Virus record (IMG/VR): IMGVR_UViG_2571042390_000006
Span: 1 to 29,803 of that record
Source: a virus
Taxonomy: Duplodnaviria > Heunggongvirae > Uroviricota > Caudoviricetes
Length of the DNA: 29,803 nucleotides
Reading direction: 5' to 3' (one strand)
Below, one piece after another: positions 1-29,103 of the stretch (the stretch's first letter is position 1; every line of letters starts with the position of its first letter). The notes under the pieces were generated by a model that saw only the letters and a list, made by a program, of their open reading frames with translations, searched no databases and had not been told where the DNA came from. Position numbers and translations under genes: made by a program.

Positions 1-1002
1 TTACCCTCTATTGTCAAAAGGGTTCAATTCAACAGCAGCCTCTAAATGACCTGGAGCAAAATGCGCATAACGCATAGTCATTTTTATATCGCTATGCCCC
101 AGTATTTTTTGCAACACAAGAATATTTCCGCCCCGCATCATAAAATGACTGGCAAACGTGTGACGTAGCACATGAGTTAATTGCCCATCAGGAAGCTCGA
201 TCTTCGCTCTCTTAATTGCAGCGTCAAAAGCCTCATAACATGGTGAAAATAGCGCTCCTCGTTTTTTGGGAAGCATAGCCTGCAATTGAGGTGAAATCGG
301 TACAGTGCGGTTCTTCTTTCCTTTAGTTTTAACAAATGTGATTCGACCGGGCAGTACTTGAGATTGCTTTAACCCTTCTGCTTCACTCCACCGAGCACCA
401 GTCGCAAGCCCAATACGGACAACAACCCCCAAATCTTTATTCCGTGACTCATCACACGCAATCAGAAGGCGTTCAATCTCATCTACATACAGAAACGCCA
501 GTTCCTTTTCTTCCTCACGAAACTTGCGAATACCAGTCAGGGGGTTTTCACCAGACCACTCCCCAAGGCGCTTCAGTTCGGCAAAAACAGCATGTAGATA
601 TGACTGCTCGCGATTAACGGTTGCTTCACTAAGTTTTTTCTTCCCCTTGGGATTCCACTCTCCTGATAACCTTCTTTCCCGATAAGTGGCAAACATATTT
701 TTGTCAAACTGAGAAGCAAATGGATCTCCCAGCCTGGAACAAATCGCCTCAAGTTTGACTTTGCGCTCTGCACCAGAGGACAAGGTTTTACCGTACATCT
801 CAAACCAACGAGCAATCAACTCAGAAAGACGAGGACCAGAACCATCTTGAAACTCGTCTCCAACTCTACTATTCATTAAACGGCGCTCATAAGAGAGCGC
901 CTCACTTTTTGTCGCAAACTGTTTACGAATGCGTTTTCCCGATGCCCCGTAGGGATAACATTCGCAAAGCCATTTACCTGATGGAATCTTACGAACCGAC
1001 AT
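1..1002 (-). CDS. int: Phage integrase (tyrosine recombinase)
   Basis: 333-aa ORF with C-terminal catalytic signature HVLRHTFASHFMMRGGNILVLQKILGHSDIKMTMRYAHF (R..HxxR..Y box). Last gene of the leftward lysogenic operon. Confidence 0.93.
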   Translation of the reverse strand: MSVRKIPSGKWLCECYPYGASGKRIRKQFATKSEALSYERRLMNSRVGDEFQDGSGPRLSELIARWFEMYGKTLSSGAERKVKLEAICSRLGDPFASQFDKNMFATYRERRLSGEWNPKGKKKLSEATVNREQSYLHAVFAELKRLGEWSGENPLTGIRKFREEEKELAFLYVDEIERLLIACDESRNKDLGVVVRIGLATGARWSEAEGLKQSQVLPGRITFVKTKGKKNRTVPISPQLQAMLPKKRGALFSPCYEAFDAAIKRAKIELPDGQLTHVLRHTFASHFMMRGGNILVLQKILGHSDIKMTMRYAHFAPGHLEAAVELNPFDNRG

Positions 1003-1007
1003 TTTAG

Positions 1008-1355
1008 TTACTTATCACATAAATCAAATGCAGCCTTAGTGACATCCCCCAGGCTCTTTTTTAACCCTGGGGCGGCATCATTATCTAGCCAAAATGGATT
1101 ATTGTTATCTAACGGTAACGCACCAAATGTTTTACCTTTTATTCGAGCCAAACCTGTAAGTGCATATAACTTATTATCGTCAAAATTCATCACATAAGGA
1201 TTACCATCAAGACACTGTAATTGAACCTCATCAGTATTAAATGGCCATACCCCATTGAAACTCTCACGTTCAATAGTTTTAAAAGGCATTGCGACGGCGG
1301 AAAAAGAAAACATAGATAAAAAAGTAACTAATAGTTGAACCTTTTTTACTTTCAT
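1008..1355 (-). CDS. Small secreted protein of unknown function (signal peptide, two Cys)
   Basis: 115-aa ORF. N-terminus MKVKKVQLLVTFLSMFSFSAVA is a typical Sec signal peptide. Sits 5 nt from the int start codon on the same strand as repressor and int. AT-rich. Confidence 0.6.
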   Translation of the reverse strand: MKVKKVQLLVTFLSMFSFSAVAMPFKTIERESFNGVWPFNTDEVQLQCLDGNPYVMNFDDNKLYALTGLARIKGKTFGALPLDNNNPFWLDNDAAPGLKKSLGDVTKAAFDLCDK

Positions 1356-1384
1356 ATCATTACCTCAATTTAGCTCAAGTAAGA

Positions 1385-2035
1385 TTACAAATTAAAAAAC
1401 GCCCTAGAAATGACACCGCCTACCAAAACCCCTACGCAGATAAAGAATATTATTTCTTTTGGATAAAGTCGGATTAATTCTGAAGCACGAAGTCGGACTT
1501 CTGGTAAGGTCGAACTCTCTGTGTGGCTTGATGCCGATTGTTGCTCTAACCACGACAATGCAGACTGTAACTGAGAACGAGTAAGATCGTTTAAACGTCC
1601 TGTACCGAAATTGATATGGCAATACCGCAGAAGTTTTTGTCGAAGTCCACAGTCTTCACTGTTACGTAGTAATAAACTTACAAGAGCCTTACAGGCATCA
1701 TGATCTTTACATCGCTCAAGCATTGCATGCAGAAAACTCTCCGCTGTTTTATATTGATTTACTGTCATATCATCAATACCAGCTACACCAATCTCCGCAT
1801 GTACTTTTTGCCAAATAATAAACGCTTCAGTATTGCTAGCTTCTGCAATAGCAGCAACCAAGCTATTTAGCTCCTTACGCTGAGCCTTAAGCAAAGGGCG
1901 ATCGTCATCATCATTATTCGAAGGGATTGCGATATTGACGGTATGAGAACCATCATATCGCTCTATCTGAATATTCTTTTCGTGAAAATCACGCCCAGCA
2001 ACGCGATTGTTTGAACCGTTTGAGTTGACGGCCAT
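1385..2035 (-). CDS. Hypothetical protein with C-terminal transmembrane anchor; N-terminus shares a motif with the repressor C-terminus
   Basis: 216-aa ORF with a GGAGG RBS 5 nt upstream. C-terminal hydrophobic stretch EIIFFICVGVLVGGVISRAFF. N-terminal SNNRVAGRDFHE resembles repressor C-terminal GNNRIAGRDYNE. Confidence 0.6.
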   Translation of the reverse strand: MAVNSNGSNNRVAGRDFHEKNIQIERYDGSHTVNIAIPSNNDDDDRPLLKAQRKELNSLVAAIAEASNTEAFIIWQKVHAEIGVAGIDDMTVNQYKTAESFLHAMLERCKDHDACKALVSLLLRNSEDCGLRQKLLRYCHINFGTGRLNDLTRSQLQSALSWLEQQSASSHTESSTLPEVRLRASELIRLYPKEIIFFICVGVLVGGVISRAFFNL

Positions 2036-2050
2036 GTCACCTCCCTACTA

Positions 2051-2455
2051 TCACCTACCCTTAGTTTCGTTATAGTCACGACCAGCGATACGGTTATTAC
2101 CACCAGAAATATTTAACTCACGTCCTGATGGCTGAGTTTCCTTTTCACTGATCGCACCTTTTAAAGCCCCAATCACCGCGTTTTTCACATCTAACGAAGC
2201 TGCTCGAAAGCGAGTAATCAACTCCTGCTCATCATCGTTATAAGTTTCAGGTGAGTGAATTCCCAACACAACATACTGAACATCAAGGCCAAAACGAGAC
2301 AGCGCTGCCAAATACGCAGCATCAGGAAAGCTATCTCCTTTCTCATATCTAAGCTGAGTTAGCTTTTTGACTCCACCAATGTCGCTCATGGCAACTTGAC
2401 TAAGTCCCAATCTTTCCCTTTCCTCACGCAACCGCTGACCAATATCATTTTTCAT
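2051..2455 (-). CDS. XRE-family helix-turn-helix repressor (candidate immunity repressor)
   Basis: HTH region IGQRLREERERLGLSQVAMSDIGGVKKLTQLRYEKG. Divergent from the early operon, in the position of P2 C / 186 CI. I chose the internal ATG (MKNDIGQ, 2453-2455) because the track start at 2530 would leave no room for the divergent early promoter. Confidence 0.7.
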   Translation of the reverse strand: MKNDIGQRLREERERLGLSQVAMSDIGGVKKLTQLRYEKGDSFPDAAYLAALSRFGLDVQYVVLGIHSPETYNDDEQELITRFRAASLDVKNAVIGALKGAISEKETQPSGRELNISGGNNRIAGRDYNETKGR

Positions 2456-2531
2456 ACAAAAAACCTTGACAGGTATCTTTTTTGATACCAAAATGATTTC
2501 ACGAGCTATTAGATGATCACAATATACCACT
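2456..2531. promoter_or_regulatory. Candidate lysis/lysogeny switch region with a dyad operator-like element
   Basis: 76-bp intergenic region between divergent repressor and early operon. Contains TTGACA (about 2466-2471) and the inverted repeat GGTATC-TTTTTT-GATACC (about 2472-2489). Exact promoters not resolved. Confidence 0.4.
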
Positions 2532-5299: not shown

Positions 5300-5562
5300 C
5301 AAAAAAACCGCTTGCCATGCCTCAATCGGTCAGGTTACATTTCCGCTGCAGCTCATAAAACGGGTGCCGGGATTCTCAACCCGATACAGAGCAAAGCGCA
5401 TAACCGCGCAAGCGGTTTTTTTGTGCGCACTGTATTGCCACGTCTTTTTCGCGTCAGAATTATGGCGGGGCGTACGGGGCCGACTTCGGTCGGGCCGGAT
5501 TCTTTGCTCTCCGGTGTTGAGAACCCTGTACGTCTCGCCACCCCGAGATTCTCAACTCTGGA
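5300..5562. other. Structured non-coding region (nested inverted repeats, three TTCTCAAC motifs, UUCG-loop hairpin)
   Basis: No convincing ORF. 9-bp inverted repeat at about 5307-5315 and 5408-5416; about 27-bp imperfect inverted repeat at 5368-5397 and 5497-5526; third direct TTCTCAAC copy near 5548; GGCCGAC-TTCG-GTCGG(G)CC hairpin near 5478-5496. Confidence 0.3.
5403..5422 (+). terminator. Candidate intrinsic terminator
   Basis: ACCGC-GCAA-GCGGT hairpin followed by a run of seven T, about 120 nt after the 4980..5279 stop. The stem is short. The right arm also pairs with AAAAAAACCGCTTGC at about 5301-5315. Confidence 0.4.
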
Positions 5563-5601: not shown

Positions 5602-5832
5602 ATGGCAGACCGCAAACAGCACCGCACTATCGCGGAGCGTCGTCACATCCAGACTGAAATCAACCACAGACTTTCCCGCGCATCACGCGTCGCGCAAATC
5701 ATGCACATCAATATGCTGCATGAGCGCAGCCACGCACTATCAAACATTTATTCCGCCTCTGTTTTCAGCTATCTGGCGGATGATCTGCACGAGCTTCAAC
5801 AGCTCATCCAGCAGCAAAACAAACTCCATTAA
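5602..5832 (+). CDS. Hypothetical protein
   Basis: 76-aa ORF with an AGAGG RBS-like sequence; no motif recognised. Confidence 0.4.
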   Translation: MADRKQHRTIAERRHIQTEINHRLSRASRVAQIMHINMLHERSHALSNIYSASVFSYLADDLHELQQLIQQQNKLH

Positions 5833-6276: not shown

Positions 6277-9099
6277 ATGACGGCAGAGTACATCAGGGAC
6301 TGGCAACAACCGCGCCACGCAGTGGGGCGTGAAGGAACGGGGATCCCCGCTCCTGAATCCGCGCTTTCCTCCTGGCTGGATGCCTACCGGGCAGAGAACG
6401 AGCGCCGCCAGGAAATGGCTGATGCGGCGTTCTCCGCCACGCCGCTGGGCAACCTGATTAATAAAAGCCTGGACGCACAGGAAAAACAGGACAAAACCAT
6501 CACACTGGCAGGAGACGCCAGAAAACAGGCACGTGGCGCGGTGGATGAAGCCATGGCCTCGCTGCGCCTGCTGCCGTCCTATCTGCGCGATCCGCTTATT
6601 CGCCACCTCTCCTTCCTGCGCAAAAAACAGGAAGCCGATCGCCGGAAAGGCAAAAAGAGCTGGCAGGCTGAACGCTACGCGTGCGGAACCCTGCGCAAAA
6701 TATTCGAACGTCTGGACCGCACCGACCACCGCTGGCTGACACCGGGTTATCGCTCCCTTGCCGGACGCGAACGCCTGGATGATTTGCTTTACCTGCCGCA
6801 GCTCAACAAACACCAGATACAGACGCTGGCCACCATGACGGCGGCGATGTTCAGCAGCACCTTCGAAAAACTCTGCGATGGCTTTGGCGCGACTGATGGC
6901 GAGCTGACCATGGATGTAACGCTGAAGGCTTATCAGATGCTGGCCCGCATGGCGTTACACCTGCACGCCATGCCTCCACATTATGACGCACTGACAACAG
7001 ACAAAGACCGGAGGAACGAACCGGACACGGAGCTGCTGCCGGGCGCAATCCTTCGCCTGACCTGTGCGGAATGGTGGAAACGCAAACTGTGGCTGTTACG
7101 TTGTGAGTGGCGGGAAGAACAACTCCGCGCCGCCTGTCTGGTTTCCAGAAAAACATCCCCCTATCTGAGCCAGGACGCGTTAAGCGAGTTTCGCGCACAG
7201 CGCGAGAAAACACGCGATTTCCTGAAAAGTTTCATGCTGGAAAATGAAGACGGGTTCACGATTGATCTCGAGACGGTGTATTACGCGGGAGTAAGTAACC
7301 CGGTTCACCGTAAGGCAGAAATGATGGCCACCATGAAGGGACTGGAACTTCTGGCCGAAGCCCGTGGCGACAGAGCGGTGTTTCTGACCGTCACCTGCCC
7401 GTCAAAATACCACGCAACAACGGAGAACGGTCATCCGAACCCCAAATGGAACGGGGCCACCATGCGCGACTCCAGCGATTACCTGGTTAACACGTTTTTT
7501 GCGGCGGTCCGCAAAAAACTGAACCGCGACGGCCTGCGCTGGTATGGCATCCGCACGGTGGAGCCTCACCATGACGGCACTGTGCACTGGCATATGATGG
7601 TCTTTGCACATCCGGACGAGATTGAAACCATCGTGTCCCACGTCTGCGATATTGCCATTCAGGAGGACCGCCACGAGCTGGGCGATGACATAACTCCGCG
7701 TTTTAAGGCGGAGTATGTCGACGGCTCAAAAGGCACACCAACCAGCTACATCGCCACCTACATCGGAAAGAACCTGGACAGCCGCGCCGTGGATGGCATC
7801 GACCCGAAAACGGGCAAGCCACGCGTTGACCACGAAACCGGAAAATCAATGGCCGAGAGCGTGGAGCGCGCCATCGGCTGGGCGCGCCTTCACCGGGTCC
7901 GTCAGTTCCAGTTCTTTGGCATCCCCTCCCGTCAGGTGTGGCGTGAACTGCGCCGCCTTGCCAGCCAGATGGCACGCAATCCGGAAGGCCCGCAACGGCT
8001 GAAAGATGATGCAATGGATGCGGTACTCGCTGCCGCCGATGCCGGGTGTTTTGCCACCTACATTGAAAAACAGGGTGGCGTGCTTGTTCCACGCAAGGAC
8101 TACCTGATTCGCACCGCCTACGACCTCGCAGATGAGCTGAACGATTACGGCGAACAGAGCGTACAGATTTACGGGATCTGGTCACCACTCATCGGGGAAT
8201 CCTCCCGTGTGTGCACGCATCCGGATAACTGGAAGCTGGTAAGACGTAAACCAGAACCGGAAGACAACGCCCACGAAAATGGTTTTGACCTTCAGGGCGG
8301 CCCTGCCGCCCCTTGGACTCGTGGCAATAACTGTCCCCGTGTACAGGAAACGGACAACAACGGGACAGAACAGCCGGAAGAACGGCCAGCACTGTGGCCG
8401 CAGCTTCCTGACGGCGTTGATGTGGATGACTGGATGCGCTCACTGAAACGGCACGAACGCCGGGCGCTGATGCGTTCGCTGCGTGACAAACAGGCAAAAA
8501 ACAGCAGTGATGAAATGCAGAGCTGGACACAGAGCCGCAAACAGCAGCGGCCTTTGCCTGATAACCACGAATTACTCGCTAAAGAATGGCGGGAATCTGC
8601 CGAATCTCTCGGCCTGCATATCGGTGAACAGCAGATGCAGCACCTGTTACGGGGCGGCAGCCTGTACGTTGACGGCAGCATCATTGCACCGCAGGGATTT
8701 GAAATTGTACGCAAACCGGATACCCGCCCGGACAGCCGAATCACGCAGCTCTGGCAGCGCCTGAGCCGTAATCACGGCGTAAGCAGCACGGAGATCCGCC
8801 ATAACCCGGTCGCCGGCTATCTGGAACAACTAAGGGCATCAGACCATGAAGCCGCCGCACGCCTGGCATCCACACTTCAGCAAGACCAGAACACCATGAA
8901 AACACCCGTTACCGTACTTTCTGACATGCTGCGCGCCATCCGCGACGCAGAGCACGCACAGAGAATCAGTGAAACAACTGAACGCGCCCACCGCAAAGCA
9001 GACCTGCTGCGGGGTGGCCTGACCAGTGGAAACAAAAAACAGACAGAAACGGGATTCACAAATCCCGTAAATGAGCAAAAAACGCGCCGCGATATATGA
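6277..9099 (+). CDS. A: Replication initiation endonuclease (P2 gpA family, rolling-circle HUH nickase)
   Basis: 940-aa ORF with VEPHHDGTVHWHMMVF (HUH metal-binding) and YIATYIGKN (active-site Tyr) as in P2 A. Longer than P2 A as I recall it, suggesting a C-terminal extension. Confidence 0.88.
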   Translation: MTAEYIRDWQQPRHAVGREGTGIPAPESALSSWLDAYRAENERRQEMADAAFSATPLGNLINKSLDAQEKQDKTITLAGDARKQARGAVDEAMASLRLLPSYLRDPLIRHLSFLRKKQEADRRKGKKSWQAERYACGTLRKIFERLDRTDHRWLTPGYRSLAGRERLDDLLYLPQLNKHQIQTLATMTAAMFSSTFEKLCDGFGATDGELTMDVTLKAYQMLARMALHLHAMPPHYDALTTDKDRRNEPDTELLPGAILRLTCAEWWKRKLWLLRCEWREEQLRAACLVSRKTSPYLSQDALSEFRAQREKTRDFLKSFMLENEDGFTIDLETVYYAGVSNPVHRKAEMMATMKGLELLAEARGDRAVFLTVTCPSKYHATTENGHPNPKWNGATMRDSSDYLVNTFFAAVRKKLNRDGLRWYGIRTVEPHHDGTVHWHMMVFAHPDEIETIVSHVCDIAIQEDRHELGDDITPRFKAEYVDGSKGTPTSYIATYIGKNLDSRAVDGIDPKTGKPRVDHETGKSMAESVERAIGWARLHRVRQFQFFGIPSRQVWRELRRLASQMARNPEGPQRLKDDAMDAVLAAADAGCFATYIEKQGGVLVPRKDYLIRTAYDLADELNDYGEQSVQIYGIWSPLIGESSRVCTHPDNWKLVRRKPEPEDNAHENGFDLQGGPAAPWTRGNNCPRVQETDNNGTEQPEERPALWPQLPDGVDVDDWMRSLKRHERRALMRSLRDKQAKNSSDEMQSWTQSRKQQRPLPDNHELLAKEWRESAESLGLHIGEQQMQHLLRGGSLYVDGSIIAPQGFEIVRKPDTRPDSRITQLWQRLSRNHGVSSTEIRHNPVAGYLEQLRASDHEAAARLASTLQQDQNTMKTPVTVLSDMLRAIRDAEHAQRISETTERAHRKADLLRGGLTSGNKKQTETGFTNPVNEQKTRRDI

Positions 9100-9144
9100 A
9101 GCGCGCATAAAACAGGCAAAAACGGGATTTCAGAATCCCGTAAA
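9047..9144. repeat. Two copies of a 20-bp palindrome ACGGGATT-N4-AATCCCGT (candidate ParR operator / centromere-like site)
   Basis: Copy 1 at about 9049-9068 lies in the last codons of A; copy 2 at about 9122-9141 lies between A and parM. Centres are about 73 bp apart and each sits inside a roughly 38-bp direct repeat. Confidence 0.5.
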
Positions 9145-9175
9145 CGATTAATTAATCAACATAAGGAAAAGCGAC

Positions 9176-10135
9176 ATGAAAATTTGTATCGACGACGGCT
9201 CCACCAACATCAAGCTGGCATGGACTGAGAACGGCGAACGCCGCAACGCCATCAGCCCGAACAGCTTCAAGTCGGAATGGTCTGCGCCGTTCGGTGGCAC
9301 GCAGCCCGCGAACTACATGCTTGATGGCGTGCGCTATGGTTTTGATCCGGTCAGCGATCGCTTTGTCCAGACAACCGACACGCAATACCAGTACAGCGAT
9401 GTGAATGTCATTGCCATTCATCACGCGCTGGTCAAATCAGGCATCACGCCACAGGAGGTGGATGTGGTTGTCACCCTGCCACTGAGCGAGTATTTCGACA
9501 CAAACGCACAGCCGGACATGGCCAACATCAACCGCAAAAAAGCGAACGTTATGCGCCCGGTGGAGTACCAGAACGGCGAAGCATTCACTATCCGTAACGT
9601 ACGGGTTATGCCTGAATCCATTCCGGCTGGCTTTAAGGCACTGGCTGACATGAGTCCGTTTGAATCCCTGCTGATTGTGGATTTAGGCGGAACCACGCTG
9701 GATGTGGCAAAGGTTCAGGGACAACTGGCAGGTATCAGCCAGGTGTTTTGCGATCCACACGTAGGCGTTTCCCTGATGGCCGATGCCGTACTGTCGGTGA
9801 TGGCCACTAACGGTATGCGTACCAGTCACCACATCGCCAATACCATTATCGAACATCGCCATGATGAAGCCTGGCTGCGCCAGCACATCCACAATGACGC
9901 GCATTACGCCAGCCTGATGGCGGTTATTCGTGAAAAGGAAGAAACACTGAAACAACGCGTGATCCGCGCGCTGGCGGGTTTTTCGGGTTACGGGCGGGTG
10001 ATGGTTGTCGGTGGCGGGGCGGAGATTGTGGCACCCGCTATCCGCGAAGCCTGCGGAGTTAATGCGACTTTCATCGCGGACGGGGTGCCACAGTTTGCTC
10101 TGGTTAATGGGCTGTACGCAATGGACAAGGAGTAA
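9176..10135 (+). CDS. parM: ParM/StbA-family actin-like segregation ATPase
   Basis: 319 aa. N-terminus MKICIDDGSTNIKLAW and the motifs VMPESIPAG, DLGGTTLD and VVGGGAE align with plasmid R1 ParM as I recall it. AAGGA RBS. Confidence 0.82.
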   Translation: MKICIDDGSTNIKLAWTENGERRNAISPNSFKSEWSAPFGGTQPANYMLDGVRYGFDPVSDRFVQTTDTQYQYSDVNVIAIHHALVKSGITPQEVDVVVTLPLSEYFDTNAQPDMANINRKKANVMRPVEYQNGEAFTIRNVRVMPESIPAGFKALADMSPFESLLIVDLGGTTLDVAKVQGQLAGISQVFCDPHVGVSLMADAVLSVMATNGMRTSHHIANTIIEHRHDEAWLRQHIHNDAHYASLMAVIREKEETLKQRVIRALAGFSGYGRVMVVGGGAEIVAPAIREACGVNATFIADGVPQFALVNGLYAMDKE

Positions 10136-10139
10136 ACCA

Positions 10140-10451
10140 ATGACGACACCAACCAGACGGATAAGTTTCTATCTGAAGCCCGCCGCCGTCAAGAACGAAG
10201 GCGAAGCATGCGCCTGGCTGGACAGCCTTACACCAGAAGCCCGCAAAAGCGGCCAACGCGTGGCTTTTCTGGCCGGGCTGGCACTTCTGAAAATGAATCC
10301 GGCAGAGGCTTACCGACTGGCTGCATGGGCTGATGATGAGGCGTTATCAGTGACACAAACCAGGACAGAACGCCCCGCGTCACAGCCAGTATCAGCCGCA
10401 CAGATAACCAGTCAGATGGCCGGAAATATCCGGGCGTTATTTCCCGAATAA
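10140..10451 (+). CDS. parR: ParR-like centromere-binding adaptor (RHH)
   Basis: Internal ATG directly after the parM stop with an AAGGAG RBS. RRISFYLKP...WLDSLTPEARKSGQRVAFLAGLAL...NIRALFPE parallels R1 ParR (RRTIAFKLNP...TLDSIPQGERSRLNRAALTAGLAL...NILRSLFPKE). Confidence 0.7.
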   Translation: MTTPTRRISFYLKPAAVKNEGEACAWLDSLTPEARKSGQRVAFLAGLALLKMNPAEAYRLAAWADDEALSVTQTRTERPASQPVSAAQITSQMAGNIRALFPE

Positions 10452-10514
10452 CACAACATCAGGGCGCATCCGCCCTGATGACTTTAACCCGGGAGCATAA
10501 ACAAGGGGGACACA

Positions 10515-10847
10515 ATGCAACACATTGACAGAGAAAAAGCGCAGCGACTGATTGAGCGGATGGAAGCGCTGGCGAAAGAAGAAAATGTCAACATCCAAAA
10601 AATAGCTGAATGTGGCCAGATAGTTCTTCGTCGTGAAAAAGACCTCAAACAACTGATGTCTGGCGAAACCAGCAAAACATGGACTTCAGGCGAGAAGACG
10701 GTTTATTGCAGTTTCTGCAATAAATCCCAGTACGAAGTCACAAAGGTGATTGCCGGACCGTCTGTTTACATCTGCAATGAGTGCGTGGATTTGTGCAATG
10801 AAATTATCAGGAAAGAAGTGACAGACAAAAAGGAAAAAAACGCATGA
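10515..10847 (+). CDS. Stand-alone ClpX-type C4 zinc-binding-domain protein with N-terminal coiled coil
   Basis: 110 aa. C-terminal [38 protein letters not shown] is near-identical to the N-terminal zinc-binding domain of enterobacterial ClpX ([39 protein letters not shown], from memory). No AAA+ module. AAGGGGGA RBS. Confidence 0.75.
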
Positions 10848-11251
10848 ACAGAAAACAGAAACAAGAGTTGAAATACTTCTTACGTAAAGAAATTGCCAGG
10901 CTTGAAGATGCAGAGTCACAATCATCAGAAATTCCGTTCGGAATGGATATCAACGACGCCAGTATGCTTCAGGCATACCGTATAGCTCAGGCTGCACTAC
11001 AGACAAAACCGTTAAATAACATACATGAAAAGTATGATTATTTTACGGATACCGCTTGCTTGCTGACATCTGAAGAACAAAAGATAGCCCAACTTTTAGG
11101 CGACGCATGGAACCTGTATTTAACGTTGCCAGTTGAGCATCCAATGGGTAGAGATGAATTTTGCCGGGCAATTCATCATTGCCAAAATATGGTGTTGGCA
11201 CGCCCGGCCATCAGGGCGCTGGCCAGGAAGGGGCAAGGCTATAAAAGATAA
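10844..11251 (+). CDS. Hypothetical protein co-translated with the ClpX-ZBD-like gene
   Basis: 135-aa ORF with ATGA overlap to the upstream stop. Coiled-coil-like N-terminus. Followed by a strong terminator. Confidence 0.55.
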
Positions 11252-11255
11252 GTAA

Positions 11256-11282
11256 AACGCCCTCCTCCAGGGCGTTTATTTC
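11256..11282 (+). terminator. Rho-independent terminator
   Basis: AACGCCCT-CCTCC-AGGGCGTT stem-loop followed by TATTTC, a few nt after the 135-aa ORF stop. Confidence 0.65.
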
Positions 11283-11564
11283 AATGCACAATAGTGCACA
11301 AATTTGCACAATTTTTTTGAACGACTTTTTACCCTTCCGGCCCGCATGGCGGCTGGATCCGTCAAGGATCCGTGCGTGCACAAAAAAACGCGTTTTTTCT
11401 GCGCGCAGGTGACGGGGGAACAGCCCGCGTTTCAGGGGGTAAATAGCACTCCCTGAACGATGTCGCAGAGATACAACAGAATGGCTGTATTTCTCACGCT
11501 GAGCGTGAAAAAGACGTGAGGGCTTTTGATTTGATGGGGTGGCAGATAAGGCCGTCAAAATCGC

Positions 11565-11585
11565 ACTGAGGCGGCGAAAACATGC
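11565..11585. other. Candidate cos (cohesive-end) site
   Basis: GAGGCGGCGAAAACATGC resembles the P2/186 cohesive-end sequence as I recall it (GGCGAGGCGGGGAAAGCAC), about 150 bp beyond the 3' end of Q where cos lies in P2. Memory-based and approximate. Confidence 0.3.
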
Positions 11586-11684
11586 AGTCAGCGCAGTGGG
11601 ATTGCGTAAGAGTCTGACCGTCGATGATGGCAATAAGCAGGAAAGCGTCGTGAAATTATCTGATTGATACAGGAGCTGGAGAGT

Positions 11685-11709
11685 CGGGGCATAAATTTTT
11701 TATGCCCCG
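11685..11709 (-). terminator. Stem-loop downstream of Q (possible terminator)
   Basis: CGGGGCATAAA-TTT-TTTATGCCCCG perfect hairpin about 27 nt beyond the Q stop. No clean U-tract on either strand. Confidence 0.35.
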
Positions 11710-11735
11710 GCGAAGCAGCAGACAAGCGAAGCGCG

Positions 11736-12782
11736 TCAGGATGTGGGCTGGGTGTCTAACAGTGCGTAAGGGTTAAAGCGGATCACCTCTTCGCCAAGCC
11801 AGTCATTGATGTGCTTCATGGCCTCCATGACAGGCATCAGCTCGTTAATTGCGTAAACCCGCGCGGCCTTCTCCACATCACCAAACGCACTTTTTTCGCC
11901 CGGCATCGCCCCCATCAGTTGCGGCGGAACGCGGTGCGCAGCCAGCACATCATCACGGGATGCCGCCTTAACATTCATGAACTCATCTTTTGCGGTGATC
12001 TGCTGGAACGGCAAAATTTGCACCCCCTCTTTGCCCCCGTTGGGCGCATGAATGAGCACGTTTTTAAATGCACCACCACCACGCGCACCCTGTAACGTTT
12101 CTTTCAGGGAGTCCATGCTTTCGCGGTTTACCTGCGCTGCACCGATGTAGATGATGCACCCGGCGTGGGATCCGTTGTCGTAGTACAGTTTTCTGAACAT
12201 GTCCGCCGAATGAGAAAGGCTGGCCGAGAGTAATGCGCCAAGATATTCCGGCATGCCGTAGATTTCCTGGTTAATATCCGGATTCATCAGGTGGCACACT
12301 TTGCCAGGGCGAAACTGGAACGCGTCCTTGCCATCCTGCACATACCACCATGATTCAAGATCGCTTCCGCGTCGCATGTATTTCGCCAGGGCGTGCCGTA
12401 ATTTAAGCGGTTCGCCGAGCATATTGCTACGAAGCTCAAGGAATGCGTTACCGAACACAAACCAGTCCAGCGCCAGCGCCGAGAAATCCTGCCGGGAAAG
12501 CAGCGGGTGCGGGATGTAGCAACCGAGTAATACATTGCGCTTAAAGTAAAGCGCAGACTGATGCCAGGACGTTTGCCGGGCAGCTCTTGCCAGACCGTAC
12601 CAGTCCACCGGGGTTTCATACCACCGCCCGTTATCAGCACAGTACATATTATCCAGCAGGTCATGCCCGGTCAGGCGATAAGGACCATCAAATGTGAATG
12701 CACTGAGCGATGATTCTTTCCTGAGCGCATCAGCGAGATCAATGCGTGAACTCATGCGCACTTTTTTATTTTTTCTGCTCAT
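11736..12782 (-). CDS. Q: Portal (capsid portal vertex) protein, P2 gpQ family
   Basis: 348 aa. Size, position and overall sequence match P2 Q. Its start overlaps the P stop. Confidence 0.88.
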   Translation of the reverse strand: MSRKNKKVRMSSRIDLADALRKESSLSAFTFDGPYRLTGHDLLDNMYCADNGRWYETPVDWYGLARAARQTSWHQSALYFKRNVLLGCYIPHPLLSRQDFSALALDWFVFGNAFLELRSNMLGEPLKLRHALAKYMRRGSDLESWWYVQDGKDAFQFRPGKVCHLMNPDINQEIYGMPEYLGALLSASLSHSADMFRKLYYDNGSHAGCIIYIGAAQVNRESMDSLKETLQGARGGGAFKNVLIHAPNGGKEGVQILPFQQITAKDEFMNVKAASRDDVLAAHRVPPQLMGAMPGEKSAFGDVEKAARVYAINELMPVMEAMKHINDWLGEEVIRFNPYALLDTQPTS

Positions 12783-27198: not shown

Positions 27199-27459
27199 AT
27201 GTTCCGTTGTCCGCTTTGTGGCGCATCTGCCCGTATCCGCACCAGTCGTCCGGAAAATGATTCAAACACCGTGCGGCAAAAGTATTACCAGTGTAACAAC
27301 CTGGAATGCGGCGTATGCTTCTCAACACTGGAAGCTTTCCATAAATTCACATCGAAACACGCCTCCGGCGTTCACTCTTCAGAAGGTATCCCGTGGCATG
27401 AACTGCCAGCTTCACACAGGGGAAACAATCAGATGAGCTTGCCTTTACCTCAGAATTAA
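27199..27459 (+). CDS. ogr: Ogr/Delta-family zinc-finger late transcription activator
   Basis: MFRCPLCGASARIRTS...YYQCNNLECGVCF: CxxC...CxxxxC zinc-finger arrangement and N-terminus as in P2 Ogr. 86 aa, longer than P2 Ogr. Confidence 0.8.
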   Translation: MFRCPLCGASARIRTSRPENDSNTVRQKYYQCNNLECGVCFSTLEAFHKFTSKHASGVHSSEGIPWHELPASHRGNNQMSLPLPQN

Positions 27460-27648: not shown

Positions 27649-27789
27649 ATGTCGCAAAAATCGCTTACGGCCATCACGTTCTGCGTGACGGTAATCCTCA
27701 TCATCTGGATGCTGCACGGTTCGCTGTGTGAAATACGGATGAGCTTCTGGGGAGCGGAGTTTGCGGCGTTCTTACAGTGTAAGCAGTAA
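27649..27789 (+). CDS. Hok/Gef-family type I toxin (46 aa)
   Basis: AAGGAG RBS. Product MSQKSLTAITFCVTVILIIWMLHGSLCEIRMSFWGAEFAAFLQCKQ has an N-terminal TM helix, the SLCEIR signature and an AAFL.CK tail as in HokA/Hok. Below the ORF-track size cut-off. Confidence 0.7.
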   Translation: MSQKSLTAITFCVTVILIIWMLHGSLCEIRMSFWGAEFAAFLQCKQ

Positions 27790-28800: not shown

Positions 28801-28887
28801 TGGTACCCGGAGCGGGACTTGAACCCGCACAGCGCGAACGCCGAGGGATTTTAAATCCCTTGTGTCTACCGATTCCACCATCCGGGC
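28801..28887 (-). tRNA. leuZ: tRNA-Leu (anticodon UAA)
   Basis: Reverse complement reads GCCCGGATGGTGGAATCGGTAGACACAAGGGATTTAAAATCCCTCGGCG...GGGTACCA: cloverleaf, long variable arm, anticodon loop UUUAAAA, 3' CCA. Confidence 0.95.
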
Positions 28888-28899
28888 TCGGGAAGAAAG

Positions 28900-28973
28900 T
28901 GGAGGCGCGTTCCGGAGTCGAACCGGACTAGACGGATTTGCAATCCGCTACATAACCGCTTTGTTAACGCGCC
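28900..28973 (-). tRNA. cysT: tRNA-Cys (anticodon GCA)
   Basis: Reverse complement reads GGCGCGTTAACAAAGCGGTTATGTAGCGGATTGCAAATCCGTCTAGTCCGGTTCGACTCCGGAACGCGCCTCCA. Confidence 0.95.
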
Positions 28974-29027
28974 AAATTCTTCAGGCCTTTCAGCCAGACA
29001 TCCGCTTGAGGCCGATGTCTTTTAAAC

Positions 29028-29103
<76 letters not shown>

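Follow-up and report, generated by a model that had tools for sequence, protein, structure and literature searches.

A type II partition system on an integrating element has been described in the SXT/R391 integrative and conjugative elements (ICEs), where srpMRC stabilizes the excised, rolling-circle-replicating form (Carraro et al. 2015, PMC4489591). This system is expressed only together with the excision and replication functions, on activation, and SrpM and SrpR were described as only distantly related to ParM and ParR of plasmid R1 (PMC4489591). The integrated prophage CGP3 of Corynebacterium glutamicum encodes AlpC and AlpA, with a reported role in viral DNA transport and replication efficiency (PMC4446434, PMC5539076). 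In P2-like phages, a "plasmid partitioning system" is listed as one class of the hotspot between genes A and Q, with the module present in about a quarter of these phages and a role in plasmid maintenance proposed as speculation (Rousset et al. 2022, PMC9122126), while the gene figures in the report on phage phiSM solely as a putative fitness factor (PMC6456863). Here we analyze such a module, a parM-parR gene pair preceded by two palindromic boxes, in a 29,803-nucleotide stretch of viral DNA (IMG/VR record IMGVR_UViG_2571042390_000006, the whole of which is called the window below). The prophage integrated here belongs to the P2 family and is of the P88 type (genus Xuanwuvirus, Peduoviridae). 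Its ParMRC cassette is real, intact and under selection, with the two boxes as a plausible centromere.

The predicted ParM is a canonical R1-type protein with intact nucleotide-binding motifs. Both Pfam domains of the family are present, StbA_N at 1.8e-82 (275 bits, cut-off 24.6) and the ParM C-terminal domain at 1.3e-68 (230 bits, cut-off 27.4), and phmmer aligns residues 2-316 with the solved structure of R1 ParM (1mwk) at E=9e-93, the R1 chains 1mwk, 4a62 and 5aey all being matched. Residue by residue, the alignment with 1mwk keeps the motifs DDGSTNIK, ESIPAG, DLGGTTLD and GGGAE, to which we assign phosphate-binding and catalytic roles on the basis of what is generally assumed for actin-fold ATPases. 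A preliminary description of the window, made by reading the sequence without database searches, had recognized ParM/StbA motifs in this ATPase, and the profile search places the protein in the ParM/StbA family and not in another actin-fold family.

The second gene of the pair begins 4 nt past the parM stop codon. Its product matches the Pfam family Plasmid_stab_B (PF10784) at 1.5e-24 (86 bits, cut-off 25) and was aligned with proteins of the R100/R1-type stbAB, IncI and phage D6 loci and of the prophage lineages, 11 sequences in all. The N-terminal strand RRISFYLKP corresponds to RRTIAFKLNP in the R100-type protein, and the next two helices align as well. At the other end, GNIRALFPE aligns with the C-terminus of R1 ParR (StbB), KNAMKLIN, which we take to be the ParM-binding peptide; within this N-x-x-x-L-F motif, the asparagine N96 is invariant in all 11 sequences. 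Overall identity to R1 ParR is 25% (103 versus 117 amino acids); some 14 internal residues are missing from the window protein, as is another, variable part of the linker. An AlphaFold model of the monomer has a low predicted local distance difference test score (pLDDT 56), yet its secondary structure fits: the N-terminus is unstructured, helices span residues 20-29 and 32-52, and a disordered linker leads to a C-terminal helix at residues 86-100. Searching ParR against solved structures returned no hit at E up to 1, the short R1 ParR peptides being below the length limit of the library, and a tblastn search of plasmids found P88-like elements only, ordinary plasmid ParRs being too diverged for this test. 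The resemblance of the small protein to R1 ParR noted in the preliminary description is thus borne out by family, N-terminal strand and C-terminal motif, and by these comparisons the two proteins form a type II (ParMRC) pair of the R1 type.

Upstream of parM are two copies of a 20-bp palindrome, ACGGGATT-N4-AATCCCGT, 73 bp apart from start to start. One lies within the last 17 codons of A and the other within the 76-bp spacer that separates A from parM (Table 1), and the perfect symmetry, the placement and the distance of about seven helical turns are all as first described. Each palindrome is part of a direct repeat, earlier put at roughly 38 bp, which measures 42 nt, with 81% identity between the two units. 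The 16-bp core GGGATT-N4-AATCCC occurs at only these two places in the 29.8 kb of the window, and when the 250 nt before parM were shuffled 20,000 times, a GGG-N10-CCC pair 70-75 bp apart came up in a single trial. The perfect symmetry is allele-specific. Among 62 distinct upstream haplotypes found via ParM, box 1 reads GGGACT in 16 and box 2 reads AATCCT in 13, and these single transitions in the population break the symmetry without compensation.

The more distant relatives are where the boxes can be judged. The pair is present in a prophage lineage of Hafnia (Hafnia-1; ParM 95% identical to that of the window; boxes GGGATTCATGAATCCC and GGGATTTGAAAATCCC, 73 bp apart), in Plesiomonas (ParM 63%; GGGACAACAAAAACCC and GGGACAACACTAACCC, 72 bp) and in a second Hafnia lineage (Hafnia-2; ParM 62%; GGGATTGAGGAAACCC and GGGTTCATTAAATCCC, 73 bp). 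Across E. coli and these three sets, a GGG-N10-CCC pair with a spacing of 72-73 bp stands at about -125 and -52 from the parM ATG; it is unique in each of the four, and shuffling the upstream 250 nt 20,000 times yields such a pair at most once. Box 1 of Hafnia-1 contains the stop codon of A, and in Hafnia-2 a separate 167-amino-acid open reading frame (ORF) overlaps both boxes, the distance from boxes to parM being kept in each case. Gene A itself was considered as the partner of the boxes and rejected, as the boxes stay with parM despite an intervening ORF or a change of the A allele, the A proteins of the three box-keeping relatives being only 60%, 55% and 34% identical to that of the window. 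In these alignments the boxes track parM, not gene A, and the overlap of box 1 with the end of A, to which the preliminary description had drawn attention, is incidental. A scan of IMG/VR with the double-box pattern alone returned 92 stretches, with ParM just downstream in all those examined.

Because diverged relatives keep the box pair, its spacing and its distance to parM, they provide the main support for the boxes as a centromere or operator, a question that the E. coli copies do not settle. ParR would be the obvious ligand, and the half-site AA(A/T)CCC is similar to the AAACCC core of R100/R1-type iterons. The two palindromes are thus probably a minimal parC or ParR operator, and the earlier suggestion of a ParR operator or centromere-like site gains comparative support, namely a box position relative to parM that is kept in diverged prophages.

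The cassette is neither rare nor new to the databases. Among 5426 complete E. coli genomes, 1324 carry it, O157:H7, O104:H4 and ST131 strains among them; ParM is 100% identical to P88 gp17, RefSeq names P88 gp17 and gp18 ParM and partition protein, and the NCBI Prokaryotic Genome Annotation Pipeline (PGAP) names the pair in every genome listed. The chromosome of E. coli O6:H16 2014EL-1346-6 matches the segment 8900-10500 at 100% identity, and 14 phage records, P88, phiSM and 520873 among them, match it at 95-99%; a species-level genome scan with ParM found three near-identical loci only. A segregation module in an integrating phage of this kind is therefore not the unexpected feature for which the preliminary description took it, and both the module and the main idea of that description are in the public record, the speculation of Rousset et al. 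included. What this analysis adds is a candidate parC that is conserved in relatives, a measure of how strongly parM is selected, the tight linkage to the replication module, and the count of chromosomal versus plasmid copies. A search of the literature found no functional study of the module, and the papers searched contained no description of the two-box site, its conservation or the selection on parM. Separately, a 226-kb contig assigned to a Gram-positive organism ("Vagococcus sp. WN89Y", NZ_JBQPOM010000071.1) carries the module with 98% ParM identity, most likely through contamination of the assembly with enterobacterial DNA.

Both genes are under selection. For parM, the ratio of nonsynonymous to synonymous substitution rates (dN/dS) is 0.073 across 104 distinct alleles and 0.039 against the Hafnia-1 copy, at a dS of 0.65, which is strong purifying selection; for parR it is 0.2-0.35. 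Across the distant lineages ParM retains 54-63% identity, compared with 29-55% for gpA, 31-47% for portal and 36-46% for the large terminase. All homologues found via ParR or ParM (at least 54% ParM identity) lie downstream of gpA in P2-like prophages, either directly or after one or two small ORFs, as in the Enterobacter and Hafnia-2 loci, and they lie upstream of the portal gene wherever the contig reaches that far. A query joining the 3' end of A to the cassette matched 1325 E. coli records, of which 1278 (about 96%) cover at least 80% of it. In this lineage the cassette behaves as a part of the replication module and not as exchangeable hotspot cargo. The prophage ParMs form a group of their own in the range of 54-100% identity, against about 52% for the closest plasmid proteins, which suggests long residence in phages.

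Within this linkage, parR is mosaic. Many E. coli genomes, including O157:H7 and ST131 strains, match the window up to about position 10195 and then switch to another ParR allele, of 55% identity. The window and the O157 allele differ little at the synonymous sites of parM (dS 0.06) and far more at those of parR (dS 1.24), and the two parR genes have only the first 18 and the last 8 codons in common. The contrast in dS and the end of the match near 10195 together indicate a recombination boundary within parR. E. coli prophages carry at least two ParR alleles of about 55% identity in which the first 18 residues are the same and the ending NI(R/Q)xLFPE is kept. What is conserved as a block runs from the 3' end of A through the boxes and parM to codon 18 of parR.

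The gene preceding the cassette encodes the replication initiator gpA, which was correctly noted as longer than P2 A. It has 940 amino acids against 761, with 30% identity across residues 77-800; the alignment stops at residue 800 of A and residue 740 of P2 A, leaving a C-terminal extension of about 140 amino acids that spans palindrome copy 1. Among relatives, the length of A ranges from 785 to 940 amino acids. The nick-region match inside A, about 0.75 kb upstream of box 1, is the presumed phage origin. A promoter scan of 8800-11800 passed no sigma-70 site upstream of parM, and no plus-strand terminator was predicted between A and parM. An autoregulated parM promoter is not claimed, the candidates seen by eye (a -35 in the box 2 spacer, a -10 ATTAAT) being weak. 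In P2, the place of the cassette is occupied by orf91, which is co-oriented with A. This position, together with the lack of a predicted promoter or plus-strand terminator between A and parM, suggests that parMR is probably the tail of an early replication transcript. The two genes would then be co-transcribed with A, staying off under repression in a lysogen and coming on once the genome is free and replicates.

With these observations in hand, we consider that the cassette may be a functional type II ParMRC system that belongs, as a fixed component, to the replication module of P88-like (Xuanwuvirus) phages and their P2-family relatives and that partitions transient circles for inheritance, and we give this reading a probability of about 50%. 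ParR dimers would bind the two 16-bp GGG-N10-CCC boxes (half-site AATCCC) through their N-terminal ribbon-helix-helix strand, and the boxes, seven helical turns apart just upstream of parM, would serve as a minimal parC. The conserved C-terminal helix of ParR would capture the ends of ATP-ParM filaments, whose growth would drive two parC-bearing DNA molecules apart. The proteins would be made from the early transcript with A while the genome is extrachromosomal and replicating, after infection or excision, and their job would be to spread circles so that both daughters, or both halves of a growing or filamenting cell, retain a copy until re-integration or packaging, much as srpMRC does for the excised form of SXT/R391 ICEs. 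The fuller statement is one we hold tentatively: an R1-type actin spindle with a two-box centromere near the phage origin would act on the virus's own circles, for inheritance or for lytic positioning, and would be fixed and strongly selected in a large integrating P2-family lineage found in about a quarter of E. coli genomes.

Several points weigh against this reading. P2-type rolling-circle replication and a fast lytic cycle present no obvious need for partition. Two boxes, or four half-sites, compare with ten iterons in R1 and might serve as an operator only. Among the 62 E. coli haplotypes, departures from the consensus amount to a fraction of 0.005-0.056 within the boxes, against 0.03-0.04 within the flanks, so that the boxes are not clearly better kept, with too little divergence to discriminate. 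The Serratia and Enterobacter relatives (ParM 58% and 54%) have a different layout, long, inverted and based on GGGAAC/GTTCCC, so the comparison with related prophages that the preliminary description had proposed gives a conserved pair in three lineages and another arrangement in two. The ribbon-helix-helix fold of ParR is drawn from the Pfam match, given the low pLDDT of the model, and the timing of expression is deduced solely from predicted signals that are missing.

The strongest alternative is a cytoskeleton for the lytic cycle, in which ParM filaments, through ParR and parC, would move or spread replicating genomes and so aid replication or packaging and not inheritance, much as AlpC, AlpA and alpS do for CGP3. 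The position of parMR directly behind A and close to the predicted origin, with no promoter or plus-strand terminator predicted in between, would suit such a role, as would the better conservation of ParM than of structural genes across lineages. There is also a precedent in that the integrated prophage CGP3 needs an actin-like protein and a DNA-binding adaptor for efficient replication and transport of viral DNA (PMC4446434, PMC5539076). However, P2 and about three quarters of P2-like phages replicate well without the cassette (PMC9122126), and parMR is intact in prophages that are unable to make virions, namely the copy in the window and an O157 remnant with an IS3 element and deletions after parR. 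It is because of these virion-incapable prophages that we favor the inheritance of circles and regard a purely lytic function as unlikely.

An improbable alternative is that the cassette is a passenger from a plasmid, either with no present function for the phage or acting on other replicons, for instance through partition incompatibility against plasmids or related superinfecting phages. Its place at the edge of the variable A-Q hotspot (PMC9122126), the marked mosaicism of parR beside a parM of low dS, and the likeness of the half-site to R1 iterons would all fit this. Yet the purifying selection on parM (dN/dS about 0.07), the near-constant association with the end of A, and the separation of prophage from plasmid ParMs are not what a passenger would be expected to show. 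A search of PADLOC found no known defense family matching ParM, ParR or the two ORFs downstream, which also counts against this alternative.

Equally improbable is that the palindromes work as RNA or DNA hairpins, for example as tandem intrinsic terminators against leftward antisense transcription into A or as stability elements ending the A message. On the minus strand, both hairpins have 8-bp stems of about -10.5 kcal/mol followed by T-rich tails, a terminator scan flags both, and these tails are the complement of the A-rich sequence conserved on the 5' side of the 42-nt repeat. In Plesiomonas and Hafnia-2, however, the hairpin energy falls to only -3 to -5 kcal/mol while the GGG/CCC triplets, the spacing of 72-73 bp and the distance to parM are kept. 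The single changes in E. coli break pairing uncompensated, and the resulting wobble pairs fall on one strand or the other without any steady polarity. No gene on the minus strand leads into the box site, two further minus-strand terminator-like sites lie downstream (10480-10457 and 11277-11255), and no Rfam family matches the box region. On the plus strand the palindromes have no U-tract, and across relatives they do not qualify as Rho-independent terminators. Since the stems weaken in relatives while boxes and spacing stay, we read the boxes as protein-binding sites.

Least probable of all is stable low-copy plasmid lysogeny, that is, a true phage-plasmid as in the speculation of Rousset et al. 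2022 and the episomal carrier state raised in the preliminary description: although a complete circular P88-like genome of 34,461 bp with integrase has been deposited as a plasmid (NZ_CP148288.1), the P1-like phage-plasmid D6 uses the homologous StbA/StbB, and the same prophage carries a Hok/Gef toxin gene, another function of the plasmid-stability type, the module occupies 1476 chromosomal and 2 plasmid places in complete E. coli genomes, which makes such a state unlikely; the integrase is kept and the window copy is integrated beside tRNA-Leu, unlike a plasmid prophage; gpA drives phiX174-type rolling-circle replication with no plasmid-type copy-control replicon seen; and the single circular record, from a strain whose chromosome was not among the hits, could be induced phage DNA. 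Like that record, a 32,167-bp stand-alone Plesiomonas contig carrying the module (WEKF01000002.1) could reflect free circular phage DNA in the sequenced culture.

The prophage in the window is P2-like, with an integrase and a chromosomal tRNA locus as first described, but as an integrating phage this copy is a defective remnant with two deletions in morphogenesis and lysis genes (Table 1). The smaller one removes the scaffold gene gpO completely, together with the 5' end of the large terminase gene and the 5' portion of the capsid gene gpN. The larger one fuses gpM to gpI, with the loss of everything from the 3' end of gpM into gpI, including the genes for head completion, lysis, tail completion and the baseplate. 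The same genes at both deletions are flagged as partial by PGAP. All features named in the preliminary description were found in the window, and the only correction to its coordinates concerns the start of parR.

Table 1. Positions of the cassette, its neighbors and other features in the window, counted from its first nucleotide.
Feature	Position	Strand	Remarks
Integrase	1..1002	-	present in the window
Two ORFs after the integrase	1008..2035	-	115 amino acids (DUF2511 per PGAP) and 216 amino acids
Repressor-like helix-turn-helix gene	2051..2530
isrK RNA	5348..5422	+	Rfam match, 59.5 bits, above gathering score
C4 antisense RNA	5458..5545	+	Rfam match, 78.5 bits, above gathering score
"Derepression protein" ORF	5602..5832		76 amino acids
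Gene A (gpA)	6277..9099	+	replication initiator, 940 amino acids; Pfam Phage_GPA 1.7e-129
Predicted ori (nick) region inside A	8297..8334	+	30 of 38 bases equal to the annotated P2 ori nick region
C-terminal extension of gpA	8680..9099		residues ~801-940
Direct-repeat unit 1, A-rich flank and box 1	9033..9074	+	palindrome 9049-9068; core GGGATTCACAAATCCC at 9051-9066
Direct-repeat unit 2, A-rich flank and box 2	9106..9147	+	palindrome 9122-9141; core GGGATTTCAGAATCCC at 9124-9139; 52 nt upstream of parM ATG
parM	9176..10135	+	actin-like segregation ATPase, 319 amino acids; Pfam StbA_N and ParM C-terminal domain
parR	10140..10451	+	predicted centromere-binding adaptor, 103 amino acids; Pfam PF10784; called translationally coupled to parM
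GC-rich hairpin just past parR	10457..10480		terminator-like site; probably the cassette end; variable hotspot cargo follows
First hotspot ORF	10515..10847		110 amino acids; ClpX-type C4 zinc finger (Pfam 6.8e-18)
Second hotspot ORF	10844..11251		135 amino acids
Deletion 1	14478/14479		1.4 kb, relative to the intact circular 34.5-kb P88-like genome (NZ_CP148288.1)
Deletion 2	16038/16039		5.2 kb, relative to the same genome
ogr	27199..27459
Hok/Gef family toxin ORF	27649..27789	+	46 amino acids; PGAP annotation
tRNA Leu/Cys/Gly cluster	28801..29103		just past the ogr end of the prophage

Other features of the prophage were observed alongside the cassette. A small ORF of the Hok/Gef toxin family adjoins ogr, and no Sok-type RNA was found at the Rfam gathering score. 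With parMRC and Hok/Gef in one prophage, relatives of both R1 stability loci (parA, which is parMRC, and parB, which is hok/sok) are present together. Matches to isrK and C4 antisense RNAs lie just upstream of the ORF annotated as a derepression protein, and the arrangement looks like the P1 immI-type antisense control of an antirepressor, here in a P2-like phage. The two ORFs between the integrase and the repressor-like gene are possible lysogenic-conversion genes. In the A-Q hotspot after parR are two overlapping ORFs, the first with a zinc finger and the second, of 135 amino acids, with no Pfam match.

If the proposed function is correct, the cassette would stand as the first ParMRC shown to work in an integrating coliphage and would offer a simple model for the smallest number of ParR sites with which a centromere can operate. 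Should the cassette partition excised or newly infecting circles, active partition of integrating elements would widen from ICEs (so far SXT/R391 only) to temperate phages and would help explain how such prophages escape loss. The two-box site would be an unusually small candidate centromere for work on the coupling of ParR to ParM. For annotation, where an E. coli chromosome carries a "plasmid segregation protein ParM", the gene is usually a sign of a P88-like prophage and not of an integrated plasmid. The cassette is found in about a quarter of complete E. coli genomes and is under strong purifying selection, yet the literature search found no experiment on it.

Compared with the ParMRC system of R1 and R100 (parA/stbAB), the cassette has the same order of centromere, parM and parR, if the boxes are indeed parC. 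ParM is about 50% identical over its full length, ParR belongs to the same Pfam family with a similar N-terminal strand and C-terminal motif, and the half-site is near the AAACCC iteron core. The differences are in the carrier, a low-copy plasmid in R1 and R100 and an integrating, defective P2-like prophage here, and in the site, where R100-type parC has two clusters of direct repeats (iterons of 10-12 bp) and the phage has two inverted-repeat boxes 73 bp apart. The phage ParR is also 25% identical, shorter (103 versus 117 amino acids) and internally deleted, and no promoter of its own is evident. The StbA/StbB pair of the P1-like phage-plasmid D6 is likewise phage-borne, with 47.8% ParM identity and a PF10784-type ParR, and the depositor's note calls StbA "similar to phage P88 StbA protein". 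Partition is expected in D6, however, which is a plasmid prophage, and the repeats upstream of its pair, of the TCTCAAATTTATCTCA type, bear no relation to the GGG-N10-CCC boxes. An identical cassette is found in P88, phiSM and further records of Xuanwuvirus, with DNA identity of 95-99% across 14 phage records and 1324 E. coli genomes, the difference being that the window copy lies in a deleted, defective prophage.

Two further systems are alike in circumstance. In C. glutamicum, AlpC, AlpA and alpS also belong to an integrated prophage, with an actin-like filament former and a DNA-binding adaptor that binds sites near its own operon, the system acting on induced viral DNA. AlpC is a divergent actin-like protein of a Gram-positive host and not an R1-type ParM, and its reported role is other than partition. 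The best functional analogy for the phage cassette is srpMRC, the partition system of a normally integrated element. There, srpC has four repeats and the carrier is conjugative and not a virus, whereas the phage ParM, unlike SrpM, is a close relative of the R1 protein.

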